Below, in pieces: positions 14,185 to 28,008 of a DNA stretch of 32,000 nt; positions within the stretch are counted from its first letter, which is position 1, and every line of letters begins with the position of its first letter. The notes under the pieces were generated by a model. It saw only the letters and a program-made list of their open reading frames with translations. It was not told the DNA's origin and did not search any database. The translations under genes and the position numbers were made by a program. This DNA is from Geotalea uraniireducens Rf4 (lineage in GTDB: Bacteria > Desulfobacterota > Desulfuromonadia > Geobacterales > Geobacteraceae). The stretch spans positions 2,550,001-2,582,000 of the forward strand of contig NC_009483.1 of assembly GCF_000016745.1 (NCBI RefSeq), in the 5' to 3' direction.

Positions 14185-14718
14185 ATGACATACACACAAG
14201 GATTCAAATCCAGCCTGGTTCGCAAGATGGCCTGCCCTAATGGCGTCTCGGCCTCAGCTCTATCCCGAGAAGTGGGAATTCCCCAACAATCACTCTCTCG
14301 CTGGCTTCGAGACGCAAATGTCGTGAATGAATCTGGTAACTCCCCAATTTCTGAAGCACCATGGAGAACAATGTCCCCAAAGCGCCCACAAGACAAGTCT
14401 GCCGAAGAAAAGCTCAAAATCGTCATCGAAGCCGAGACGGTTGCCGAAGATCAACTTGGCGCCTTCCTGCGTCGCAATGGAATTCATGAAGCACAGTTAC
14501 GCGAGTGGCGCGCCATGATGCTTTCGGGGCTGCAAAAACCGTCTCGGCCTTCCTCAAAAACATCAGAGGAAACTCGCAAAATTCATGCACTGGAAAAAGA
14601 ATTACTGCGCAAAGATAAAGCATTGGCCGAGGCCGCCGCGATTTTGATCCTCAAAAAAAAAGTCCAATCGATCTGGGGGGGCGAGGACGAGCCCACGGAC
14701 AAGAGGAACGGCAGATGA
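14185..14718 (+). CDS. IS3-family transposase OrfA (HTH DNA-binding and leucine-zipper part)
   Basis: 177 aa with an N-terminal HTH (SALSREVGIPQQSLSRWLR) and coiled-coil C-terminus (IHALEKELLRKDKALAEAAAILILKKK). AAGGA Shine-Dalgarno sequence before the ATG. Confidence 0.85.
   Translation: MTYTQGFKSSLVRKMACPNGVSASALSREVGIPQQSLSRWLRDANVVNESGNSPISEAPWRTMSPKRPQDKSAEEKLKIVIEAETVAEDQLGAFLRRNGIHEAQLREWRAMMLSGLQKPSRPSSKTSEETRKIHALEKELLRKDKALAEAAAILILKKKVQSIWGGEDEPTDKRNGR
14653..14661 (+). promoter_or_regulatory. Programmed -1 ribosomal frameshift site (A9 slippery run)
   Basis: The A9 run falls within the orfA codons CTC AAA AAA AAA GTC. The -1 frame is open from here (KKSPIDLGGRGRAHGQEERQ) into the orfB ATG at 14715, which lies in the -1 frame relative to orfA. 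Confidence 0.7.
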
Positions 14719-15740
14719 TCGGGCAACTTATTGAAGAGGCAACCCATTCCGGAGCGAGACTTGAATCGGCCGTTGTCGCCATCGGGCTGAGCATTCGCAC
14801 GTTCCAGCGTTGGAATCTCCAGGATGACGGAGCAGATCGGCGACATGGGCCAGTCGCAGAACCGGCGAACAAGCTGGCTCCGTCGGAGCGGCAGAACATC
14901 ATCGATATTGCAAACTCCCCGGCGTTTCGGGATATTTCGCCGAAACAGATCGTGCCGCAATTGGCCGATCAGGGAATATACGTGGCGTCGGAATCGAGTT
15001 TCTACCGGGTGCTCAAAGACGATGGGCTGATGACTCACCGGGAACCCTCCCGGCCCGCCACCAGCCGCAAGCCAAAAGAACATGTGGCTACCGGTCCTTG
15101 CCAGGTCTGGTCATGGGACATCACCTACTTGAAGAGCCCGATTCTTGGGCAGTTCTTTTATCTCTACATGATCATGGATGTCTGGAGCCGCAAGATCGTA
15201 GCGTCCACGGTGTTTTTAAAAGAATCCAATGACTATAGCGCCAGGCTGTTTCTGAAAGCCTGTATCAGGCTCGGCATCAATCCGGAAGGCCTGATTCTTC
15301 ACTCCGACAACGGCGGCCCGATGAAAGGGGCGACCATGCTGGCTACTCTCCAGCGCCTGGGCGTAATTCCTTCCTTCAGCAGGCCACAGGTCAGTGACGA
15401 CAACCCTTTCTCAGAAGCGCTGTTCCGAACCATGAAATATAGACCTGGTTATCCGAGTCGGCCTTTTTCAAGTCTGGCAGCGGCCCAGACTTGGGTTGAT
15501 GGTTTCGTCGCTTGGTATAACACGGAGCATCTGCACAGCGGCATTCGCTTCGTCACCCCGGACGATCGCCACTTCGGCCGGGAGAAAGCCATCCTGTTAA
15601 ACCGCCGGGAGATATACGAGAAGGCCCGGCAACAAAACCCAAACCGCTGGTCAAAAAACATCCGAAACTGGGAGCCAGTGGAAACAGTTTATCTTAACCC
15701 TGAACCAACGGCGGAAGTCGAACTTCTTGACGCCGCATAA
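14715..15740 (+). CDS. IS3-family transposase OrfB (DDE integrase core)
   Basis: 341 aa with rve/DDE signatures: WSWDITYL (first D), HSDNGGPM (second D), NPFSEALFRTMKY (E region). An ATGA overlap joins it to the orfA stop. Confidence 0.9.
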   Translation: MIGQLIEEATHSGARLESAVVAIGLSIRTFQRWNLQDDGADRRHGPVAEPANKLAPSERQNIIDIANSPAFRDISPKQIVPQLADQGIYVASESSFYRVLKDDGLMTHREPSRPATSRKPKEHVATGPCQVWSWDITYLKSPILGQFFYLYMIMDVWSRKIVASTVFLKESNDYSARLFLKACIRLGINPEGLILHSDNGGPMKGATMLATLQRLGVIPSFSRPQVSDDNPFSEALFRTMKYRPGYPSRPFSSLAAAQTWVDGFVAWYNTEHLHSGIRFVTPDDRHFGREKAILLNRREIYEKARQQNPNRWSKNIRNWEPVETVYLNPEPTAEVELLDAA

Positions 15741-16779: not shown

Positions 16780-16864
16780 ATACGTTCCCTCCATCTATCA
16801 GGTTTTGAACTGCGCTTATCAGGTCGTATCCCATGTTCTCCGCACTGACGGGCTTTCACTTTCG

Positions 16865-17311
16865 TTATCCCCGTTCCATCTCCTCCGCCCTCGCCTTCAG
16901 AAACTGCAACTCATTCTCAATGTCGGCGACAAGCTCAGCTTCTGTCGACACAAGTCCTTCCACTTTGAACGATTTCCGCTCCAGCTCAACGGCAATCTGC
17001 AGGTCGACCGGTGCCATGGGGTTCTGCACCGAGGTGGGCACCAGCCGGGTAATGAGTCGCCCCTCGTAAATGGGGTGCTCCAGCAACTCATGGGTAACGC
17101 GGTTTTCATTTTCCTCAGGAAGAATCCTCTCCCGCACGCGCTTCCCTTCCCACAGCATCTCCCTGACTACCCCCCCGGCTGAACGCTCCACGATCCGCGC
17201 CGACTCCACGCCATGCAGATAATTCTGCGGGTTCTCCACCCGGTCCATGAGTATCTTCCAGATCGTAGCCGGCTGGGCGTGCACCAGGGTTTGAAATGTG
17301 TTGATCAGCAT
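16865..17311 (-). CDS. SRPBCC/START-like superfamily protein (function unknown)
   Basis: 148-aa ORF with a good Shine-Dalgarno sequence (GGAGGTG). The fold assignment rests only on size and general resemblance to AtaL/DUF1857-type SRPBCC proteins, so it is weak. Confidence 0.5.
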   Translation of the reverse strand: MLINTFQTLVHAQPATIWKILMDRVENPQNYLHGVESARIVERSAGGVVREMLWEGKRVRERILPEENENRVTHELLEHPIYEGRLITRLVPTSVQNPMAPVDLQIAVELERKSFKVEGLVSTEAELVADIENELQFLKARAEEMERG

Positions 17312-17489
17312 CTGTCACCTCCACGGCAAAGATTTAAACACGCTAACAATAATACCATTGTTTTGAACTTTTTCGCTGCCAGGAGTCTGTCGGACTTAGG
17401 GAATCGTAGTAAATGGTTTATGTGGTGCGGAAGGGGATGAAAACATGGCCCGGGAGACGGGCCATGTCAGGATTACGCGTCTCGGCGGA

Positions 17490-19061: not shown

Positions 19062-19370
19062 CTACAGGAGTTGCACCTCGCTGACCCGAACGATCAGCAT
19101 CTCCTGGCGATAGCGAGCAGCCAGTTCCTCCCGGTAGCCCCGCCACCAGTCCTGGTCCAGTTGCTCCGTCATCACTTCATAGATGACGATATCATCATGT
19201 ACCGTCGTGGTACTGGTTTCCTTCCATAACCCCTTTGCAGGAGAGCGGACATAGGTGGTAAGACCGCCGAAACGTTCCGTCAGTTCGTCCCGCACCAGTT
19301 CAAATTCATGCTGAGGAAAAGGCTTCCCCTCATTATCGTAGAGCGGCAACAGTATCTGGATAAGATGCAT
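19062..19370 (-). CDS. Hypothetical protein
   Basis: Start placed at the internal ATG (MHLIQILLPLYDNEGKPF...), preceded by GAAGGAAA. The longer track ORF (to 19493) has no Shine-Dalgarno sequence. No family recognised. Confidence 0.55.
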   Translation of the reverse strand: MHLIQILLPLYDNEGKPFPQHEFELVRDELTERFGGLTTYVRSPAKGLWKETSTTTVHDDIVIYEVMTEQLDQDWWRGYREELAARYRQEMLIVRVSEVQLL

Positions 19371-19540
19371 GATTTCCTTCTGTTCGTGCATGCAATGGGT
19401 ATGGAACATTGTACCGCATTTTGCGGAGATTTTAGTCGGATCGCCTTCCAAAAGTGAGAAATGGAACAGAAATGGCCTGCGAGTGCAGGCCATTCAATGA
19501 AAGCATGGAATTCAAACAGGTGCGAAAACCTGCCGATATT

Positions 19541-19660: not shown

Positions 19661-19852
19661 GGTCAATCCCTCCAAGGTGTTAGTGATTACTGCGGGTGAC
19701 CATTTAGATAACATCATCATGTTACAGGGGGATTATGGAATGGCAAGGATCTTATGACATGTCGTAAGCTTGATTATAGCAGTAGATAGACAAGAGCGTC
19801 CCACCACGAATTTATGAAATACGCATCTTCTTCGGTTTGTTTAAACAAATAT

Positions 19853-20122
19853 TTATTGTTCCGTATTCTCCAAAAAGATAACTTCGTTGCTCCCTTCCGG
19901 ATGAGGCTTTACATGGACATGCAGAAACGCCTCGTAAGAAGGATAAATACCCATTGTGCTATACGCGTCAATGCCCTTGTCCTTTACATTCAGGTCCGTC
20001 CGCCAACAGGTTACTACCTGTCCGGTGTGAAAGATTACCCCATCGAGAACTCTTCCGGTGCCGCTGATGCCCGAGGGGTCGATTTTCCTAACAAGGGTGA
20101 AAAGCTTCGGATTTGCTTCCAT
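19853..20122 (-). CDS. 89-aa protein of unknown function, last gene of the CBASS operon
   Basis: GGAAGGTG Shine-Dalgarno sequence; the start is 11 nt after the Cap5 stop. It contains the motif DPSGISGTGRVLDGVIFHTGQVVTCW. Confidence 0.7.
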   Translation of the reverse strand: MEANPKLFTLVRKIDPSGISGTGRVLDGVIFHTGQVVTCWRTDLNVKDKGIDAYSTMGIYPSYEAFLHVHVKPHPEGSNEVIFLENTEQ

Positions 20123-20133
20123 GTGTCACCTTC

Positions 20134-21318
20134 CTATTCTACAGAACTTCTGTTTATGGCGAGTGCGCAAGTATATCCACCAGCGTCATTGATAAAGTCG
20201 TAGACCATAATTGGTGGGTCGCTTTTCGGTAAGAGCAAACGCCCACATTCAATAGCAACGGGAGCTGGCACTGCGCAAAACAGATGGATTGGCTTATTGT
20301 GCCCATTGTTTGTGCGCAAAATTTCCAGCAAACGCCTATACTCATAGCTGAACGTCTTGAGTTTTGATCGCTTAGAAAGAAAATCACGGCTAGGATTAGC
20401 CACCGATAATTCATAGCAATTATATTCATCTCCCATAACCGCAGAGACAGTAGACTTGTTAACACTGCTGCTTATGGAGATAATTACAGCTGTCTTTGCA
20501 TCAGGGTCGTGTTCCTCCGGGCCACACAAACTATAATACTGTTCAGAAAGTTCTTCTGGACTTTCCTTCCATTTCCAGTCATCGGTTTTAAGATGTCTTT
20601 GGTAGAGGTCAACAGTCCTTTTATCACCAATAAGATTACCTAAAAACACCAGCAGTGGAATTGGTGCCAATGCAAAAACAGAGATATGATTGAATTCTCT
20701 CCTTTTGACGCCTTGGTTAAAAATCTCATCGAACTTTGTTTTGATAATTCGAGATAAGAATGGCCAGTATCCTTCACCTGTTTCTTTTTCCGGTATATCT
20801 GACAAATCGATTATGTACGCATTTTCGTCAGCTGGGTACTTAGGTAGAATTGCCTGAAAAGCATGCGCCTGGTCGATATGGAAAGTTTTTCCGGCAATTG
20901 GCGCTTGGAAAATAAGGACATGGGTCTTTGAGTCTTCTTGTATTCCAGTAAGCACCTTGATTCTTTTTTCGTGCTCTGTTTTGTATTCACGAAGCAGTGC
21001 AACTGGATACTTCGGTACGTGTTCAATGCTGTCAATAATTTTACCGTGTTTTCTGCATGTAAGCATTAGATTCGAAATATCAGTTGCAAGGCGAAAAGAG
21101 TCAACGGGGTTCCCTCTTGGGCCGTTCGGTTCATAGGCGATAATATGAGAAATGACCGCCAGGTTGTCGTGCAGTTTGGTTAAATCATCAGAATATAAAA
21201 TGTCATTACAGCCGCGGAATTGGCAACGTCCGGCTGCTCGTGCCCAAAGCTGATTGACAACTTTGTCGGGAATTTTTATGCGACCTGCTTTCTTCTTTTT
21301 TTCTGGCACTTCTGCCAT
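20134..21318 (-). CDS. cap5: CBASS effector Cap5: HNH endonuclease fused to a SAVED sensor domain
   Basis: N-terminal HNH-type region (CQFRGCN..., ISHIIAYEPNGPRGN, NLMLTCRKHGKIID). The roughly 270-aa C-terminal region has SAVED-like features (HLFCAVPAPVAIECGRLLLPKSDPPIMVYDF). GGAGGG Shine-Dalgarno sequence, 10 nt after the Cap3 stop. Confidence 0.85.
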   Translation of the reverse strand: MAEVPEKKKKAGRIKIPDKVVNQLWARAAGRCQFRGCNDILYSDDLTKLHDNLAVISHIIAYEPNGPRGNPVDSFRLATDISNLMLTCRKHGKIIDSIEHVPKYPVALLREYKTEHEKRIKVLTGIQEDSKTHVLIFQAPIAGKTFHIDQAHAFQAILPKYPADENAYIIDLSDIPEKETGEGYWPFLSRIIKTKFDEIFNQGVKRREFNHISVFALAPIPLLVFLGNLIGDKRTVDLYQRHLKTDDWKWKESPEELSEQYYSLCGPEEHDPDAKTAVIISISSSVNKSTVSAVMGDEYNCYELSVANPSRDFLSKRSKLKTFSYEYRRLLEILRTNNGHNKPIHLFCAVPAPVAIECGRLLLPKSDPPIMVYDFINDAGGYTCALAINRSSVE

Positions 21319-21328
21319 AAACCCTCCA

Positions 21329-21823
21329 TTACAATAATTTCAGCATTGTAATCGTTCTCGAACGTCTGTGCCCCTCCCACATCCGCATCTCAGAGGTGCC
21401 GACAATCAGAAAGAAGAGACTATCGCTGTCGACTATGTCATTTTTCAACTTCCTTTTCCAGTTGGTATCGTCGATGCTTGACGGCGACGGATGTGGTTCC
21501 GGGTGGGTATGCCACTCGCCCAGGTAGGTGCAGGTATGATTGCTGGCCTCCCATGCCCTATCGATTACCTGCTGATGCGCCCTCTTCTTCCGGAAGAAAG
21601 TTGTCCTCGTGGCCCTGTCTCCAGGCATCGGGAAAGAAATCTTGTCAATCACGACATCCTGCGAGTCGATAATGTAGCGCCCCAACATTACGCCGCCGCC
21701 TTCCGGTTTATGCCGGTCATTTTGGATATATCCATGGATGGATGCTATCACCTCGACCGGAAGTTTGATTCGGCCGCCGTTTGGCCGGGCATATACCAGG
21801 TTATCACACAGTTTCAGGTTCAT
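21329..21823 (-). CDS. cap3: CBASS Cap3, JAB/JAMM-family isopeptidase
   Basis: JAMM motif in EASNHTCTYLGEWHTHPEPHPSPSSIDD (E...HxH...S..D). The start is uncertain: ATG at 21823 (20-nt overlap with cap2) or TTG at 21865. Confidence 0.85.
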   Translation of the reverse strand: MNLKLCDNLVYARPNGGRIKLPVEVIASIHGYIQNDRHKPEGGGVMLGRYIIDSQDVVIDKISFPMPGDRATRTTFFRKKRAHQQVIDRAWEASNHTCTYLGEWHTHPEPHPSPSSIDDTNWKRKLKNDIVDSDSLFFLIVGTSEMRMWEGHRRSRTITMLKLL

Positions 21824-23534
21824 GGCAGACAGGGCATTCTTCAAAGTGGTAATTAGCTTCCTCAATAAAATGGTCGTTCGAGGCGGAATACCTCGACGAC
21901 AGTTTCTTGCCGTTCTTCAGGAACTCCGTAGCATCGCCCCGCCATGAACGAATCAGGTTTGTTTTGATGTCGCCATTCAGTGTGGCGATAGCCAGCCTCG
22001 TAGCGAGTTCGGCAGTCTTCATGGCGTCGAGCGACCCGAACGGCGTAAAGACATTTCGGCAGCCATTAATGTTTTTGGCGAAAGACTGACCTTTTTCGGC
22101 AAATGATGCTCGGCACCGTAAATCCCCATCCTCGGGCTGATACAGACATTTAAGGCACCCCTTCTTGGAGCCGTTCCTCGTAAGAAGCGCATGCCCGCCA
22201 ATGCCATATGGCTCAAGCCAGGTGAAGATGACCGGGGGTGAATCGATGCCATGAATGTACTTGCTAAAGACCAGTTCTACCGTGACATTCCCAAGGGCGG
22301 ATATTATGAGGTCGAAATCCCCTATTTTGATTTTTCCCGATTCCAGCGCATTCTCAAGAGACAAGGGGATTGGAAGCACCTCGACAAATGGCAGTCTTCC
22401 CTCGATGTCGTCTTTGATGCCATCGACCTTATTCTTGCCGACATGTTTCTTCCCGAGAACATGACGGAACAGATTCTCATGAGTCAGCACATCCTTGTCA
22501 AGGACGGTCAATCGCAAGATGCCGGCACGAGTCAGTTCGTTGGCGATGAATCCACCAACGGAGCCGCATCCAAGCAGCAGTACACGTTTTTCGCGCAATG
22601 CCAGGTTGCTTCCGCCCCGGGGGAGAAGATACTCCTTGTCTCTCCGGGTTATGGCCAAAGGGATTATTTCACTTGCCCTCCCTGCCTCGTGCAATGGGTG
22701 CTCATGATTGACCCCCTTGAACTTGATTCCAAAGAGCGTTTCACCATCGGAGGCCCTGGGTAGGCTGAGAAGAATCACCTCTTCGTGATGAGGTTTTGTT
22801 AAGAGCGACAGCAGTTCGGATTTCTGGTCTGCCCGCAGATTGTCGAAGACTATCTTGCGGATATCGAGGAGTTCCCAGAACTTGTCAGGGTGAGGCGGAG
22901 TGATGACTGTCCCAATGGGCAACGGAATGTAGATGGCAGGATAATGTTTCCAAGGTACATGGGGTTTAATCTTGCGGTATTTCTTGTAACTCTGCTCATC
23001 GTCTGCAAGGTACCCTGCCCCACCTTTAACTTTATAAAGATGGATTCTTTTGACCTGGTCGCCAGGCGAGACAATAGAGGTAAAGAACTTCACCTTTTTG
23101 AGGCGGTCCCAGTACGCTCCGAACTCGTCAAGGAAGTCTTGATGGTTCTTCCCAGAAATGCCATCTACGACAACCTGTATGGCCCTTGAAAGTGCCTCCT
23201 GGGCTATTCCGGCAACATCGTCGAAATCGAGGACAGAGCCATCCTCCTGCGCGTAACATATATACCCGTCTGTTTCAACATGAGGGAGGATGCCAAACGA
23301 ATCCCATTGCGCCAGAAAGATATACGGAAGAGATAACGGGAAGGACTTCTTGACCCCAAAATAGAAATCTACCGGCACCCCATTCAACTCAATTACCAGC
23401 TTGTAGCTACGGCAAACAAAGCGGTCCTTGGCCCACGGTTCTGCCAGGCGCTTTGGGTGGAGTTCCGCAACAGATTTAACCAGTAGGCATGTTTCAAGTG
23501 CCTCTTTCAACAAGGATTCATCATAATTAAGCAT
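21804..23534 (-). CDS. cap2: CBASS Cap2, E2-like / E1-like (ThiF) fusion
   Basis: N-terminal E2-like domain with PHVETDGYICY (candidate catalytic Cys). Central ThiF/MoeB Rossmann LLLGCGSVGGFIANELTRAGILRLTVLDKD. C-terminal CxxC pairs (GCLKCL, ECPVCH). The start is placed at the ATG at 23534, which overlaps the CD-NTase stop by 8 nt (ATGCTTAA). Confidence 0.88.
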   Translation of the reverse strand: MLNYDESLLKEALETCLLVKSVAELHPKRLAEPWAKDRFVCRSYKLVIELNGVPVDFYFGVKKSFPLSLPYIFLAQWDSFGILPHVETDGYICYAQEDGSVLDFDDVAGIAQEALSRAIQVVVDGISGKNHQDFLDEFGAYWDRLKKVKFFTSIVSPGDQVKRIHLYKVKGGAGYLADDEQSYKKYRKIKPHVPWKHYPAIYIPLPIGTVITPPHPDKFWELLDIRKIVFDNLRADQKSELLSLLTKPHHEEVILLSLPRASDGETLFGIKFKGVNHEHPLHEAGRASEIIPLAITRRDKEYLLPRGGSNLALREKRVLLLGCGSVGGFIANELTRAGILRLTVLDKDVLTHENLFRHVLGKKHVGKNKVDGIKDDIEGRLPFVEVLPIPLSLENALESGKIKIGDFDLIISALGNVTVELVFSKYIHGIDSPPVIFTWLEPYGIGGHALLTRNGSKKGCLKCLYQPEDGDLRCRASFAEKGQSFAKNINGCRNVFTPFGSLDAMKTAELATRLAIATLNGDIKTNLIRSWRGDATEFLKNGKKLSSRYSASNDHFIEEANYHFEECPVCHEPETV

Positions 23535-24567
23535 GTGCAGAGGCACTGGCCGTGGATATGGCGCGGCTCTTTTTTTCGCCGGTGTCAGGTTTTTCCGGAA
23601 CAGGGAAATCGTCCCCAAAGACCTTTTTCAGGGTTTCACATGCCTTTACCGGGTCCACTTCGCTGGCGGCCGAGTCGAGGGCCTCCAGCAGACTGCCCAG
23701 TTTCTCCTTCAAAGTTGCCATCTGATTGTCGGTCATCTTCTCGAACAACTCGGAATAGGGTTCAACTGGGAGGTACACTCTCAGTCGGTCGCCGAAATTG
23801 TTCAGCATCCCATTGACAACACCCCTTGTTGCCTGCAGGTCGTTGTATTTGTACGTGCTCGCCACGATGTCCATTAAGGTCTTGTTGGGGGTGAACCAAT
23901 TGTATGCCGCGATGGTCAGGCCTATGCCGATTGGCGCGGCGTTTCCGTTGGAAGAGAAGTTGTAATCCTTCCACCGCTTCAAATACCGTATTACCATGAC
24001 GAATTGTTTCTTGTCGTCTCCCGCATGTTTGTCCCCGACCGTATCCGCCAACTTTTGTGGTTCGGAGATTTCCCAACATTTGTTATCGTCGGACGAATTC
24101 AGTTTCCCTTTCGCTAGGTATTTCTTGCCGTCTGAGTTACACGACTCGTCGGAATATACAGCCAGGTCCACATGATAAACCGGCTCGTCTCCTTTCTGGT
24201 AGAAAACGGTAACGCATGGCCTTCTCATGTCGACTTTCTTGGTGTGTCCGTTCAAGGCGTCATATACCCATTCCTTGACCTCCACCGGGTCCAGATAGTT
24301 GTCTTTCGAGACGTTGAAGGACACCCCGACATCGATATCGTAGTCGCTGTCCAGCGGGATAATGCCGGTACCCATTTTATAGCTCCCCTGGTCAAAAGTC
24401 TGGTACGTGGGAACCGGTTCGTCCTTCTCCTCGAAAATAGTCTTCAGACGTGACTTCAGTTTATCAAGGACGATGTCTCGTTTTTCCCTCAGGATCTGGT
24501 TTTCATCGAACTTCTTGAGCTTTATTGCATCATGAAAGGTCTCAAAATATTTTTGAACATCAGCCAT
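23527..24567 (-). CDS. CBASS cGAS/DncV-like nucleotidyltransferase (CD-NTase, SMODS domain)
   Basis: Pol-beta NTase signature: GSYKMGTGI ... DYDIDVGV ... HVDLAVY (GS, DxD, third Asp). 346 aa. Ala-terminated flexible tail ...RAISTASASAHA. GGGAGG Shine-Dalgarno sequence. Confidence 0.88.
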   Translation of the reverse strand: MADVQKYFETFHDAIKLKKFDENQILREKRDIVLDKLKSRLKTIFEEKDEPVPTYQTFDQGSYKMGTGIIPLDSDYDIDVGVSFNVSKDNYLDPVEVKEWVYDALNGHTKKVDMRRPCVTVFYQKGDEPVYHVDLAVYSDESCNSDGKKYLAKGKLNSSDDNKCWEISEPQKLADTVGDKHAGDDKKQFVMVIRYLKRWKDYNFSSNGNAAPIGIGLTIAAYNWFTPNKTLMDIVASTYKYNDLQATRGVVNGMLNNFGDRLRVYLPVEPYSELFEKMTDNQMATLKEKLGSLLEALDSAASEVDPVKACETLKKVFGDDFPVPEKPDTGEKKSRAISTASASAHA

Positions 24568-24593
24568 ATTGCCTCCCTGAATAACGAAGTGAT

Positions 24594-24848
24594 CTACTTC
24601 TTCCCTCTTCCTTGCCTCTGCGCCAATGCACTCCCCGCCGCGGTCTTTGAATCTTTATTTGTCCGTCCGTCACTCAATACCTTTGAGGCCGCTGTTGCCG
24701 CCTTTGCAGATGTAACCTTCGCCGGTGCCTTGGTCTGAGATAATGCACTACCAGCCGCTGTTTTCGATTTTGGAGCAGTACTGCCGCTTGTCAGGGTTTT
24801 TGATGCACTTGTTGCAGCCTTTGAACCTGTCACTTTTGCCTTTGTCAT
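24594..24848 (-). CDS. 84-aa Lys/Ala/Ser/Thr-rich protein made of two ~36-aa repeats (unknown function)
   Basis: Strong AAGGAGAA Shine-Dalgarno sequence before the ATG at 24848. The stop lies 27 nt before the CD-NTase start. The two repeats (AKVTGSKAATSASKTLTSGSTAPKSKTAAGSALSQT and AKVTSAKAATAASKVLSDGRTNKDSKTAAGSALAQR) are conserved as protein but diverged at synonymous sites. Confidence 0.75.
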   Translation of the reverse strand: MTKAKVTGSKAATSASKTLTSGSTAPKSKTAAGSALSQTKAPAKVTSAKAATAASKVLSDGRTNKDSKTAAGSALAQRQGRGKK

Positions 24849-24892
24849 GATGTTCTCCTTGAGCAATATTTTTCGGCATTTCACAAACCCAA

Positions 24893-25408
24893 CTACCTGA
24901 AATTCCTCGCCGACCCGAAAAAATTCGCTATCGCAATTGTCATCGCCGGTTTACTCACCTGAAAGATCCCCGCCAGTTTGTCCGGATTCTTCAAATCCGA
25001 CTGATACTTCTTCAACTGTTCCACCGGTATAAGCAGTTCCGAAGCGAAGGCATCCGCTTCCTGTTCCTTAGGCGGTTTGGCATTTTCCGGCATATCCTCA
25101 CCATATTCCCGCGCCACCTCGGCATCGTAAAACTCCCGCTTGTCGTGGTTGAGAAAGATGTGACCCAACTCGTGAGCCAGGGTGAAACGGGCACGAACGA
25201 AAGGTTTTGCCTTGTTCAACATGGCAACCCGAGTTCCGTCTAGTTCCAGAATCATCCCATCAAGTTCATCCGGATCGTCGAGCTCGACATATTCCAGGCC
25301 GAGGCTCTCACAGATTACTTGCAGGTTCGTGGGAACCTCGTTGATCTTGTGCTTTTTCAGAATCTTTCGCGCCATCTCTCTGGCATAGGTGTAGTTTGCC
25401 GCGATCAT
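24893..25408 (-). CDS. ImmA/IrrE-family zinc metallopeptidase (CapP-like)
   Basis: HEXXH in TLAHELGHIFLNH, with a downstream EQEADAFASELLIP motif typical of COG2856/ImmA. An ATGA overlap joins it to the upstream HTH gene. Confidence 0.88.
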   Translation of the reverse strand: MIAANYTYAREMARKILKKHKINEVPTNLQVICESLGLEYVELDDPDELDGMILELDGTRVAMLNKAKPFVRARFTLAHELGHIFLNHDKREFYDAEVAREYGEDMPENAKPPKEQEADAFASELLIPVEQLKKYQSDLKNPDKLAGIFQVSKPAMTIAIANFFGSARNFR

Positions 25409-26292
25409 TGTCCGCCTCCAGCCTGATCCAGGCGCTCCAGGGCAGCTTTCACCCTTGCCAGATAGTCATCGCTTACCAGCTTCTGCTCCTGAGGGCTCCC
25501 CTTTTTCTGCGCCAGTTTTTCAAGGACCTTGTTGACACTGCTTGACTGTACCGCCGCTCCCTTGGCGTCGTAACAGGTAGAACGGGCATGCACCATGGTA
25601 ACGGAGTTTTTCATGTCAAAGATGGAGAGGGTTGCATTCAGCAGCCGCTTCAGGTTGTCGAGAGTAAGTCCGAAAAACCGGACGATTCTGGCCGTAACGT
25701 CGGGAGAAATCTTTTCCGGCGGAAAGTCGTTATTCTCAATCTTTACCAGGTCCGCCGGTTCGATTTCCAGAGAAGCGCAGACCACATCGGGCAAGAGTCT
25801 GGTGGCGGCAATCACTTCCCTGATGTATTCGCCAAAGGAGATATATTGCTCCAGCAGGGATGTATTGGCCTTTTGTATTGCGGTGGTCCGCTCATTCTGC
25901 AACAGGTTGACGCGGGCATCGGGCACCTTTTCGATGAGGTTATGCACCAACAGGTTCATTGACGGCGTGATCGCCACCTCTCCCCGTTCCCAGCGGCCGT
26001 AGGTATTGCGCCCGATCTGCAGCAGATCGCAAATCTCGTCCAGCTTCATATCAAGAACGCGGCGCAACGTTTTCAGTTGCTCCGGCGTCAGGAGCGGCTT
26101 CAGCCCGAACTCCATGGCGATCCTCTTCTTGTCGATCTCCAGGCTCTGGGCATGGGTAAAGGTCACCTCCCCGCAGGCCGGGCAGATTTCGCAATCAAGG
26201 TCGTGTAAGACGTGACTCTCGTCGTTGACGGTTATGGTAAGTTCGGTTTTGGCAGCGCGGTATTCGGCCTCAAAACAGTTCGTGCAGATCAT
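25405..26292 (-). CDS. MqsA-like zinc-ribbon plus XRE HTH protein with a second HTH-like domain and C-terminal extension
   Basis: N-terminal CxxC...CxxC ribbon (CTNCFEAEY...CEICPACGEVTF). HTH LTPEQLKTLRRVLDMKLDEICDLLQIGRNTYGRWERGEVAITPSMNLLV, as in MqsA/YgiT. A second XRE-like segment FGEYIREVIAATRLLPDVVCASLEIEPADLVKIENNDF. 295 aa, whereas I recall about 130 aa for MqsA. Confidence 0.8.
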   Translation of the reverse strand: MICTNCFEAEYRAAKTELTITVNDESHVLHDLDCEICPACGEVTFTHAQSLEIDKKRIAMEFGLKPLLTPEQLKTLRRVLDMKLDEICDLLQIGRNTYGRWERGEVAITPSMNLLVHNLIEKVPDARVNLLQNERTTAIQKANTSLLEQYISFGEYIREVIAATRLLPDVVCASLEIEPADLVKIENNDFPPEKISPDVTARIVRFFGLTLDNLKRLLNATLSIFDMKNSVTMVHARSTCYDAKGAAVQSSSVNKVLEKLAQKKGSPQEQKLVSDDYLARVKAALERLDQAGGGQ

Positions 26293-26303
26293 GGTCGTTT
26301 CCT

Positions 26304-26642
26304 CTATTTGATCGTGAAAGAGGTCAGCTTCCAGCCGATGAATTCACCGGTCTGCGGGTGGTAGTTGCTGCACACCTTGCAGTAAACCGCCACCCCGGTG
26401 GTGCTGGTCCCCTGTATCACATAGTGGGTGTTGTGCGGATTGCTTGCCCGCTCGCTCGTTGCCGGCATGGCCTTCTCAATAGTGTCGGCAGCCATGATGA
26501 CCTTTTCCACATCGGCCTCGTAGAGCTTGGCGCGATCCATGTCGTCCATGCAATCCCTGGTTTTACGTATCTTCCCCACCAGATAGGCATCCTTAATTCT
26601 CTTGAGGACAAGATCATCCAGTTCCGTTCCAATTGGTGTCAT
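26304..26642 (-). CDS. MqsR-like toxin-fold protein (tentative)
   Basis: 112 aa from the ATG at 26642. Hand alignment to E. coli MqsR recalled from memory: GKIRKTRDC vs GQVRTTRSA, VAVYCKV vs QVYLKIT, WKLTSFTIK vs LIVSFKEK. The gene order is toxin-first, as in mqsRA. Start could also be 26660. Confidence 0.55.
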   Translation of the reverse strand: MTPIGTELDDLVLKRIKDAYLVGKIRKTRDCMDDMDRAKLYEADVEKVIMAADTIEKAMPATSERASNPHNTHYVIQGTSTTGVAVYCKVCSNYHPQTGEFIGWKLTSFTIK

Positions 26643-26712
26643 ACATACCCCAGACAACATACTGCACCAATTGGTGTTATTATTAATATACCAATTGGTG
26701 TTTTGATGTCAA
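26627..26712 (-). promoter_or_regulatory. Sigma70-type promoter with three palindromic operators for the nine-gene operon
   Basis: On the minus strand: TTGACA (26712-26707), 16-nt spacer, TATATT. The 11-mer ACACCAATTGG occurs three times (plus-strand CCAATTGGTGT at 26691-26701, 26667-26677 and 26629-26639). The full palindrome CACCAATTGGTG is at 26665-26676. Confidence 0.75.
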
Positions 26713-27531: not shown

Positions 27532-27750
27532 TTACGCCGCCTTTTTCGCCTTGGCTCTAGCGATCCGGACGAGTGACCGCAAGGCATCGTTCACCGATTT
27601 CGAATCGGGGAAAAAATCGGCGACATCCTTTTCAAGCAGGACCAGATTCGTCCCCTTCGCATACTCTCCCGCATATTTTCCTTTCACCCCCGTTTTCATT
27701 GCGGAGAGATCATATTCGGGACGCACATCATCATTACTCGTTTTCTTCAT
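27532..27750 (-). CDS. brnA: BrnA-type antitoxin
   Basis: 72 aa. MKK...RPEYDLSAMKTGVKGKYA...GTNLVLLEKDVADFFPDSKSVNDALRSL matches the antitoxin family usually paired with BrnT/DUF497. 17-nt overlap with the upstream toxin frame. Confidence 0.75.
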   Translation of the reverse strand: MKKTSNDDVRPEYDLSAMKTGVKGKYAGEYAKGTNLVLLEKDVADFFPDSKSVNDALRSLVRIARAKAKKAA

Positions 27751-28008
27751 AGTAGTTCCTCTCGGCGCGAGTCGCCTTTCTTGCAGAGATTATTCTGATA
27801 GCCCCGGCCCGGTCGGCATGTGCAAAGAGCAGCACCCGTCCTGCCTCCGACATGCCGATGGTAATGAACCGTTCCTCATCCTCAGAATGGTCAGGATCAG
27901 GAAATGTCAACGACAAGGGATCACCAAAAACAGAAGCAGCTTCAGCGAAGGAAACGCCGTGTTCTTCAGGTTGCTCACAGCCTTTCTCTTATCCCAGGCG
28001 AATTGCAT
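27734..28008 (-). pseudogene. brnT: BrnT (DUF497) toxin gene with a 1-nt frameshift
   Basis: The ATG at 28008 gives MQFAWDKRKAVSNLK, after which the frame derails. The remainder, (E)HGVSFAEAASVFGDPLSLTFPDPDHSEDEERFITIGMSEAGRVLLFAHADRAGAIRIISARKATRAERNYY, is in another frame. The junction AAGAACAC (about 27964) appears to lack one base relative to the expected K-K-H-G. Confidence 0.7.

Follow-up and report, generated by a model that had tools for sequence, protein, structure and literature searches.

This analysis concerns a nine-gene operon on the minus strand of the Geotalea uraniireducens Rf4 chromosome, located within a stretch of 32,000 nucleotides (contig NC_009483.1, positions 2,550,001 to 2,582,000), which is referred to as the window and whose first letter is position 1. 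At its center lies a predicted type II CBASS, an anti-phage signaling system based on cyclic oligonucleotides, which is preceded by a head of four small genes (O1-O4) and followed by a single small gene, O9, whose product is assigned here to the Acb5 family first described from phages.

Organization of the operon

Nine consecutive genes, O1 to O9, occupy positions 19853-26642, as read from the open reading frames (ORFs) and the minus strand.

26304-26642, minus strand: O1, 112 amino acids (aa), of a family without Pfam entry that always stands before an MqsA-like gene; candidate toxin or co-regulator
25405-26292, minus strand: O2, 295-aa putative repressor/antitoxin; residues 1-125 MqsA-type zinc ribbon and helix-turn-helix (HTH), residues ~126-295 an added domain
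24893-25408, minus strand: O3, 171-aa M78 (ImmA/IrrE/CapP-type) zinc metallopeptidase with HELGH motif, peptidase domain only
24594-24848, minus strand: O4, 84-aa basic protein (isoelectric point 11.4) of two 38-aa repeats, with two predicted helical hairpins
23527-24567, minus strand: O5, DncV-like CD-NTase (cyclic-oligonucleotide synthase; PADLOC Cyclase), C-terminus ...SASAHA
21804-23534, minus strand: O6, Cap2 (E2 plus E1/ThiF); Prok-E2_B 1.4e-47, ThiF 2.7e-20, PADLOC E1-E2 6.4e-170
21329-21823, minus strand: O7, Cap3 (JAB/JAMM isopeptidase); Prok-JAB 5.5e-17, PADLOC JAB 8.6e-53
20134-21318, minus strand: O8, Cap5 effector (HNH nuclease plus SAVED sensor); SAVED 2.9e-47, PADLOC endonuclease effector 7.2e-117
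19853-20122, minus strand: O9, 89-aa Acb5-family protein, predicted cyclic-dinucleotide nuclease, last gene of the operon

Throughout the operon, neighboring genes overlap or are separated by at most 44 nucleotides (nt). O1 and O2 are 11 nt apart, with the Shine-Dalgarno sequence AGGAAA, and O2 and O3 share an ATGA overlap (25405-25408). The largest gap, of 44 nt, lies between O3 and O4, followed by one of 26 nt containing GGGAGG between O4 and O5. O5 and O6 overlap in ATGCTTAA (23527-23534), and the gaps before O8 and O9 measure 10 nt (with GGAGG inside) and 11 nt (with GAAGGTG inside), respectively. An earlier note on this DNA had proposed such a tight nine-gene unit, and every junction that it named was confirmed upon re-reading. 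A search with Rfam returned no element within the operon. The GC content is 43-51% over the operon and 54-65% in much of the flanks.

The four central genes form a standard type II CBASS in canonical order, an assignment on which Pfam, PADLOC and NCBIfam agree, and the earlier identification of this core is thereby borne out. The CD-NTase O5 matches PF21654 (6.3e-14) and PADLOC Cyclase PDLC00795 (1.2e-127) and contains the GS...DxD motif; O8 also matches PADLOC SAVED_HNH (6e-112), and O7 matches NCBIfam Cap3 at 7e-31 with 107.5 bits, which lies under the 200-bit cutoff of that model. All parts that define a type II system, namely the CD-NTase, Cap2 together with Cap3, and an HNH-SAVED effector, are thus present. 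Cap3 most likely starts at ATG 21823, with a 20-nt overlap with Cap2, rather than at TTG 21865. In gene content, gene order and expected domains these four genes equal those of known type II CBASS with a Cap5 effector, whereas a fifth conserved, Acb5-like gene after Cap5 and the co-oriented four-gene head set the present operon apart. Within the core, the CD-NTase would make the cyclic nucleotide, conjugation by Cap2 would prime the CD-NTase and Cap3 would reverse this priming, while the SAVED domain of Cap5 would bind the signal and its HNH nuclease would cut DNA.

The effector gene itself seems to have a different history. Its GC content is 0.42 versus 0.48-0.55 for the other eight genes, and in relatives whose CD-NTase, Cap2, Cap3 and Acb5-like protein reach 73-90% identity, Cap5 stands at only 57-58%; one metagenome locus (L046) has a Cap5 version at 78%. 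The gene therefore seems, from its composition and divergence, to have been exchanged through recombination within the operon.

The last gene and the Acb5 family

The earlier note had listed the 89-aa product of O9 as an unknown protein, which it is not. Although O9 has no match in NCBIfam, PADLOC or Pfam (E<=0.01; the Pfam copy used possibly lacks PF26761), it matches phrog_7499 at 1.8e-13, and a homology search returned 237 proteins, of which the 120 listed are 53-94% identical to O9 and are all annotated with PF26761. In the gene tables of the homologues' loci this family is named 'Acb5'. In a study of 2025, Acb5 is an anti-CBASS protein of phages, predicted to be a homotetramer, which splits 3'3'-cyclic GMP-AMP (3'3'-cGAMP) into 2',3'-cAMP and 2',3'-cGMP; mutants of Acb5A in R10, W38 or H61 lose anti-defence activity, the substrates tried were 3'3'-cGAMP and cUA only, and most homologues in genomes of isolated phages are carried by Streptomyces phages (10.1101/2025.07.12.664507).

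We compared O9 with the Acb5A reference sequence from the supplement of that study. BLASTP aligns the two with 51% identity across the first 37 residues (E=6e-10), and hhalign gives 96% probability for the match between the O9 family profile and Acb5A. In a joint alignment, R12, W40, H70 and H74 of O9 correspond to R10, W38, H59 and H61 of Acb5A, and these four residues are invariant both among 29 CBASS-linked homologues and in a nine-sequence alignment with phage Acb5 proteins. On the PF26761 annotation of its homologues, the matches to Acb5A and the aligned invariant residues, O9 is assigned to the Acb5 family, with the residues needed for Acb5A activity intact. Compared with the phage proteins it is longer in two places, by an insert of about 10 residues behind the Trp and by 2 residues between the two His. 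It also differs in its location: O9 is host-encoded and closes a CBASS operon on the chromosome, whereas Acb5 is an anti-defence gene of phages. A tblastn search of phage genomes with O9 gave 96 records, all of them Streptomyces phages.

Linkage of the O9 family to CBASS

The earlier note had named rare linkage of the flanking genes to CBASS in other genomes as the finding that would speak for chance adjacency. The comparison favors linkage. Among GTDB genomes, the four CD-NTases nearest to O5 (64-85% identity) are each encoded in the order CD-NTase, Cap2, Cap3, Cap5, O9 homologue; two of these loci (L001 and L002) are identical in sequence, so that the four amount to three distinct examples. 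In them O9 is 75-90% identical, versus 58-61% for Cap5. A scan of metagenomes with the O9 family alignment yielded 80 loci, 71 of which have at least 300 nt of upstream sequence; in 53 of the 71 (75%) a Cap5 homologue lies directly upstream on the same strand, and wherever such a locus offers at least 4 kb of upstream sequence, CD-NTase, Cap2 and Cap3 are found upstream in every case. The same five-gene layout is present on plasmid pDrdI of Deinococcus wulumuqiensis NEB 479 (L131; NZ_CP031163.1, 57939-63013), where the fifth gene product, WP_114673269.1, is annotated merely as 'hypothetical protein'. The identity of O9 homologues moreover tracks that of the CD-NTase (Spearman 0.85, n=19), of Cap2 (0.76, n=22) and of Cap5 (0.69, n=45), and between O9 and its L001 homologue synonymous outnumber non-synonymous changes by 35 to 8. 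By these comparisons O9 homologues are tied to CBASS rather than adjacent through chance. A search of the available literature found no report of Acb5-family genes in CBASS operons or of operon-encoded degradation of a CBASS signal, and the motif of the CBASS-linked Acb5 clade is absent from the supplementary lists of the Acb5 paper, which are possibly incomplete.

Since Acb5 came to light as an anti-CBASS factor of phages, and relatives of O9 at about 47-51% identity adjoin minor tail, terminase and GH25 endolysin genes in phage contexts, O9 might instead be a captured phage anti-defence gene that hitch-hikes behind Cap5 and is either non-regulatory or silences the system. We consider this quite improbable. 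The place behind Cap5 is the same in Desulfuromonadota, in Deinococcota and in many lineages from metagenomes, and the co-divergence, the translational coupling, the strong purifying selection and the intact CBASS genes all argue against a passenger. In a rough neighbor-joining tree without support values, the phage-borne close relatives form, together with a few stand-alone copies, one sub-clade nested within the CBASS-embedded radiation and not the reverse; Acb5A and the Streptomyces phage proteins fall outside this radiation in the same tree.

A different function is conceivable. Acb5A leaves 2',3'-cyclic phosphate products, and because such a reaction would need a free 2'-OH beside a 3'-5' bond, 2'-5'-linked signals could escape cleavage. 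O9 might act as a specificity filter which removes non-cognate cyclic dinucleotides, from a neighboring CBASS or from housekeeping signaling, while the cognate signal resists, for example through a 2'-5' linkage. The several loci in which a second CD-NTase and a 250-aa gene follow the Acb5-like gene would suit such a filter. We regard it as an unlikely explanation, since most loci, this window included, have a single CD-NTase, and since a cognate substrate would explain no less well why O9 diverges so closely in step with the CD-NTase of its own operon. In the metagenome loci concerned (L018-L021, L053) the second CD-NTase has about 330 aa, the 250-aa gene belongs to no family and both stand directly after the Acb5-like gene, which is thereby placed between the two systems of a tandem CBASS arrangement.

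O9 is best read as a self-limiting, signal-clearing brake, because it is a host enzyme with the catalytic residues of a cGAMP nuclease whose translation would start 11 nt after Cap5. Made along with the effector, it would degrade the operon's own cyclic dinucleotide and clear basal or residual signal, so that Cap5 would fire only above a threshold and would reset afterwards. The same logic is known from type III CRISPR, where a single ring-nuclease family is common to hosts (Crn2) and viruses (AcrIII-1) (PMC11724313) and serves as both a self-limiting brake of the host and an anti-defence weapon of the virus. The proteins are unrelated, the signal is cA4 rather than a cyclic dinucleotide and the defence system is a different one. 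A bacterial origin of Apyc1 is summarized in the same source (PMC11724313).

Proteins of the head

The first gene of the head had been called MqsR-like in the earlier note, which the present searches did not confirm. O1 has 185 homologues at 67-96% identity, and because nearly all of them have 112 aa and start with M-[TAPSV]-P-[IL]-G, its start is most likely ATG 26642, on the strength of this alignment, rather than 26660. There is no Pfam match, and a profile search of the PDB gave no significant relative. An AF2 model of high confidence (pLDDT 90.6) shows three helices packed against a β-sheet in which one strand is short and four are longer; its top Foldseek match, the toxin chain of a Salmonella toxin-antitoxin (TA) complex (7vd7_A), lies below significance at E=0.09, the MqsR structure 3HI2 is outside the top 50 matches, and hhalign of O1 with MqsR gives a probability of 1.4%. 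An MqsR-like identity was dropped on these grounds. The family is tiny, with 26 clusters in 1.8 billion representatives in an exhaustive hidden Markov model search, and its most distant members match DUF4258 below the cutoff of that family.

The second gene was rightly assigned to the MqsA family. O2 scores 63.2 bits with TIGR03830 (cutoff 61.8), and residues 1-125 match Pfam MqsA PF15731 (1.9e-12), with a YgiT finger at 3.1e-5. MqsA reads operator DNA through Asn97 and Arg101, as seen in the MqsA-DNA structure, and in O2 the residues N96 and R100 are invariant and stand in the same HTH context. Beyond the MqsA part O2 has about 170 extra C-terminal residues, and this domain (~126-295) is presumed to be the protease-sensitive part. 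At another locus (L124), an M78 peptidase and an O4 homologue accompany an HTH protein to which residues 151-270 of O2 are similar, which agrees with O2 being an MqsA module joined to a protease-sensitive, ImmR/CapH-like tail. Searches of PDB sequences gave no matches for O2 or O9.

The third gene encodes, as noted earlier, an M78/ImmA-type peptidase: O3 matches Peptidase_M78 (5e-16) and PADLOC capP (5e-28, profile positions 5-152 of 242), and its sole match among PDB sequences is CapP 7T5T (6.7e-5), a protein of 291 aa. Judged by the domains in its sequence, O3 is closer to ImmA and other short COG2856 peptidases of a single domain than to CapP.

O4 matches phrog_5079 (9.6e-21) and has at least 850 homologues with no annotated family; it is under purifying selection. 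Pfam, NCBIfam and PADLOC gave no matches, none were found in phage records, and its AF2 model has no fold match in the PDB. Two roles considered for O4 were rejected. It is not a dedicated, lysine-rich conjugation target of Cap2, because the same protein also accompanies TIR, GTPase and other cargo without Cap2, and it is not required as a nucleic-acid sensor for O3, because the head of a 6A-MBL-type system carries an O3 (84% identical) without O4.

Promoter and operator palindromes

The head begins with a single strong promoter, as the earlier note had claimed, and with palindromes that it had not reported.

26685-26712, minus strand: sigma-70-type promoter, TTGACA (26712-26707), 16-nt spacer, TATATT (26690-26685), with TGn extension
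26690-26701: putative operator palindrome 1, ACACCAATTGGT, within the spacer of the promoter, in contact with the -10 element
26665-26677: putative operator palindrome 2, ACACCAATTGGTG, at about +1, invariant in L032, L035 and L039
26629-26639: third palindrome copy, ACACCAATTGG, directly after the O1 start codon

With 11 of 12 consensus positions, the promoter (TTGACA-16-TATATT) is the top site of the 9.2 kb scanned, and it is kept in the heads of two other loci (L032, L035). The palindrome ACACCAATTGGT(G) occurs in three copies near the promoter and the start of O1, and all five matches to CACCAATTGG with at most one mismatch in the window fall inside 72 bases of the promoter and O1 start. 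Palindromes 1 and 2 keep their position in three other heads (L032, L035, L039), while the sequence further upstream diverges. The third copy is degenerate in L035 (ACACCAATCG) and in L039 (TCACCGATTG); it overlaps codons 1-5 of O1 (ATG ACA CCA ATT GG, M-T-P-I-G; 26629-26642) and, by its position, may be a third operator, a translational control site or merely O1 coding sequence.

The head as a portable cassette

The combination O1-O4 is also found before other cargo. In Geobacter sulfurreducens (CP010430), O1-O2-O3-O4 (74-82% identical) precede genes for a TIR/LD-cluster protein and for ThsB-like TIR proteins in the same orientation. DNA similarity to this head stops exactly at the O4 stop codon, and in both loci the first cargo gene follows 10-26 nt further on. 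On contigs from a hydrocarbon metagenome, O1-O2-O3 precede, again co-oriented, a 6A-MBL-type system with an E2-E1-JAB protein and a patatin. At other loci an O4 homologue comes after an HTH-M78 fusion and before a GASH/DO-GTPase system, or after a WYL-WCX (CapW-like) regulator. By these contexts, O1-O4 form a mobile head cassette with its own promoter and palindromes, placed before unrelated defence systems. The head is not specific to CBASS, since TIR and 6A-MBL systems follow it as well. The head was not found in a search of viral contigs, and a literature search found no description of MqsA together with CBASS or with ImmA.

Across L025-L031, L124 and L032-L034, O4 homologues recur immediately behind regulators of the damage type (an HTH-M78 fusion, a WYL-WCX protein, and an M78 plus HTH pair) and in front of candidate defence cargo; they also stand in unrelated contexts, namely with DUF4238, with DUF6765/HlyC and on Deinococcus plasmids.

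A sister locus from a groundwater metagenome (L133; ERZ909598 k127_41871) illustrates how cargo may be replaced. It is 95.5% identical to positions 26902-25917 and 94.3% to positions 19762-17355 of the window, and it keeps the promoter, O1 and residues 1-125 of O2; between the matching stretches it encodes a 181-aa MqsA-like protein and a 1329-aa DUF8371 protein. The 181-aa protein matches O2 closely up to residue 125 and then diverges into a short K-rich tail. The breakpoints lie at O2 codon 125 (the P124-D125 domain boundary) and 90 nt after the O9 stop codon, the left one thereby coinciding with the MqsA domain boundary of O2. Because the sister locus matches both flanks at 94-95% with different cargo between them, the intervening stretch looks like a swapped block at a cargo-swapping hot spot, as far as these two sequences allow comparison.

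19763-25916, minus strand: block that differs from L133, comprising the O2 C-terminal domain, O3, O4, the CBASS core and O9

O1-O2-O3 might be a self-standing three-component toxin-antitoxin (addiction) module which stabilizes the island, with CBASS transcribed by read-through and without meaningful regulation. Three-component TA systems of a COG2856 protease, an Xre repressor and a RelE or PIN toxin were predicted previously (PMC2701414), stand-alone copies without cargo exist (L039-L043), and the sister locus has a plain two-gene version of O1 and a short MqsA. This account appears doubtful to us for the present operon. There is no room for a strong promoter between head and cargo, the gaps being 44 and 26 nt and the sole promoter-like site, inside O4, matching 9 of 12 positions in the promoter scan; the head is fused to the cargo start at 10-26 nt in independent systems; all three contexts in which head plus O3 precede cargo hold known or candidate defence cargo; and a canonical CapP takes the regulator slot in relatives. 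The two readings are, moreover, compatible, as a TA-type repressor can double as a switch.

Comparison with known regulators

HTH repressors paired with M78 peptidases are established regulators of CBASS. Of 408 CapP-associated CBASS systems, 'the vast majority' have CapH and CapP upstream and in opposite orientation (Lau et al., 10.1101/2022.04.27.489752), and the same divergent placement is stated for all CapH/CapP-like operons found with FlaGs (10.1101/2022.04.27.489752). The statement in the earlier note that CBASS regulators are usually divergent, so that a co-oriented layout is out of the ordinary, is backed by this survey. As in CapH/CapP, an HTH repressor and an M78 zinc peptidase (HExxH; HELGH in O3) stand beside CBASS here, whereas the pair in the window is co-oriented and translationally coupled, with all genes on the minus strand, which is unusual because the published regulators are mostly divergent. 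CapP senses single-stranded DNA (ssDNA) through a groove formed by its C-terminal GAF domain, together with a cysteine-switch loop (10.1101/2022.04.27.489752); O3 lacks both, the position of the switch cysteine being Ala. O2 differs from CapH in its MqsA type with a zinc ribbon, and an extra gene, O1, lies upstream.

Distant CBASS relatives with an Acb5-like tail (L059, L062, L066, L071, L083) have a CapP-like gene in the canonical divergent position, and the closest CBASS relatives have no regulator at all. Because of the former, the head is interpreted, from gene neighborhoods, as a replacement or addition in the slot of the known regulator.

Other known systems share parts of this arrangement. 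ImmR/ImmA of ICEBs1 and DdrO/IrrE of Deinococcus each combine, in one transcript, a repressor and the short M78 peptidase of a single domain by which it is cleaved, and the 171 aa of O3 compare with about 160 aa for COG2856 proteins (Makarova et al. 2009, PMC2701414). Here, in contrast, the part presumed to bind DNA is MqsA-like, and the cargo presumed to be regulated comes further down the same transcript. MqsR/MqsA resemble the head in having a first gene before the antitoxin, an antitoxin that combines an HTH with a CxxC...CxxC zinc ribbon at its N-terminus, and palindromic operators in their own promoter, to which the two to three putative ACACCAATTGGT copies at -10, +1 and the start codon would correspond; the three-component TA systems (PMC2701414) likewise have an attached protease gene. 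In contrast to both, O1 is not detectably MqsR (PF15723), RelE or PIN, O2 carries its C-terminal extension of about 170 residues, and the module heads defence operons.

Proposed working of the operon

We put the probability that the locus is one autoregulated operon of three modules (head, type II CBASS core and O9) at roughly 60%. O2 would bind the ACACCAATTGGT palindromes over -10 and +1 and thus repress the whole transcript, including its own gene. O3, coupled to O2 through the ATGA overlap, would cleave the C-terminal domain of O2 upon a signal of infection or stress, by which the operon would be derepressed. O1, in the toxin position of an MqsRA-type pair, would be held by the zinc-ribbon domain of O2 and possibly be freed through the same cleavage, and O4, which is small, basic and conserved, would accompany regulators of this kind. 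Gene content, coupling, the promoter and palindromes with their conservation, the modularity of the head, the Acb5 membership of O9 with its key residues, and the kept synteny with co-divergence are observed directly. Our functional statements on O1-O4 and O9 are drawn from sequence and gene context: we infer from them the DNA binding of O2, its cleavage by O3, the trigger, whether O1 is toxic, and what O9 cleaves and does in the cell.

A wider version of this reading, to which we give somewhat less than an even chance, would extend it beyond the window: a large branch of type II CBASS with Cap5 would carry its own Acb5-family nuclease as a fifth core gene, a built-in off-switch and threshold device akin to the CRISPR ring nucleases; phages would have exchanged this gene with host operons more than once and turned it into an anti-CBASS weapon; and the head would here couple a proteolytic trigger to induction and to the release of a toxin.

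Several points weigh against this interpretation. A signal-degrading enzyme that is co-made with the effector might simply weaken the defence. In 18 of the 71 metagenome loci, no Cap5 homologue lies directly upstream of the Acb5-like gene; two of them still have CBASS genes in another order (L051, where the CD-NTase comes first and the Acb5-like gene stands between an E2-only protein and Cap5; and L107), and some are phage-borne (L114, L127-L130), which indicates that members of the Acb5 family also serve as plain anti-defence genes. As regards the head, it is absent altogether from the closest CBASS relatives, and because O1-O2 copies with a decayed O3 and no cargo exist (L039-L043), it can persist alone like an addiction module. 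O1 has no significant match in sequence or fold to MqsR or to any other toxin. Finally, because O3 has neither the GAF domain nor the cysteine switch which CapP uses for ssDNA sensing, DNA damage cannot be assumed, from sequence comparison, to be the trigger; with the known ssDNA-sensing parts missing, O3 may answer a different one.

Surroundings of the operon

Upstream of the operon lies a remnant of a BrnTA module (27532-27916, minus strand), consisting of a BrnT toxin fragment without its N-terminus (27734-27916; Pfam BrnT_toxin 1.7e-14, profile positions 29-77 of 77) and an overlapping BrnA-like ORF of 72 aa (27532-27750). Two terminator-like hairpins, at 27388-27367 and 27287-27271, lie between this remnant and the operon promoter and are taken to insulate the operon from it. 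Directly downstream of the operon, within the stretch shared with the sister locus, an ORF of 143 aa without Pfam family is found (19062-19493, minus strand). Two other stretches, an insertion sequence (IS) element with an HTH_Tnp_1 ORF and an rve integrase ORF (14185-15740) and a 562-bp stretch with an AtaL-like ORF of 148 aa (16793-17354), are apparently absent from the sister locus and would be further small insertions near the island. The remainder of the window is ordinary chromosome, with genes for malate dehydrogenase, monomeric isocitrate dehydrogenase, aspartyl-tRNA synthetase and lactate utilization, the IS element, SppA, an EamA transporter and tRNA-Gly.

Implications for the control of CBASS

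Two separable points emerge: an Acb5-family gene that is conserved within operons of type II CBASS, and a TA-like head of repressor and protease that is portable among defence operons. The latter would be a compact mobile cassette of promoter, operator, repressor and protease that stands before CBASS, TIR and 6A-MBL systems in the same orientation as its cargo. The means by which CBASS is restrained in uninfected cells and its signal is shut off are known in part, through the reversal of priming by Cap3 and through transcriptional repressors. If the reading of O9 is true, an operon-conserved, signal-degrading enzyme would be a third and direct layer of control, and CBASS would gain the duality of host brake and viral weapon that is known for type III CRISPR with Crn2 and AcrIII-1. 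The cultured Deinococcus wulumuqiensis NEB 479, with the five-gene version on pDrdI, makes the brake hypothesis directly testable in a practical model. Acb5, described in 2025 as a phage protein only, would then be recast as a family common to defence operons and phages.

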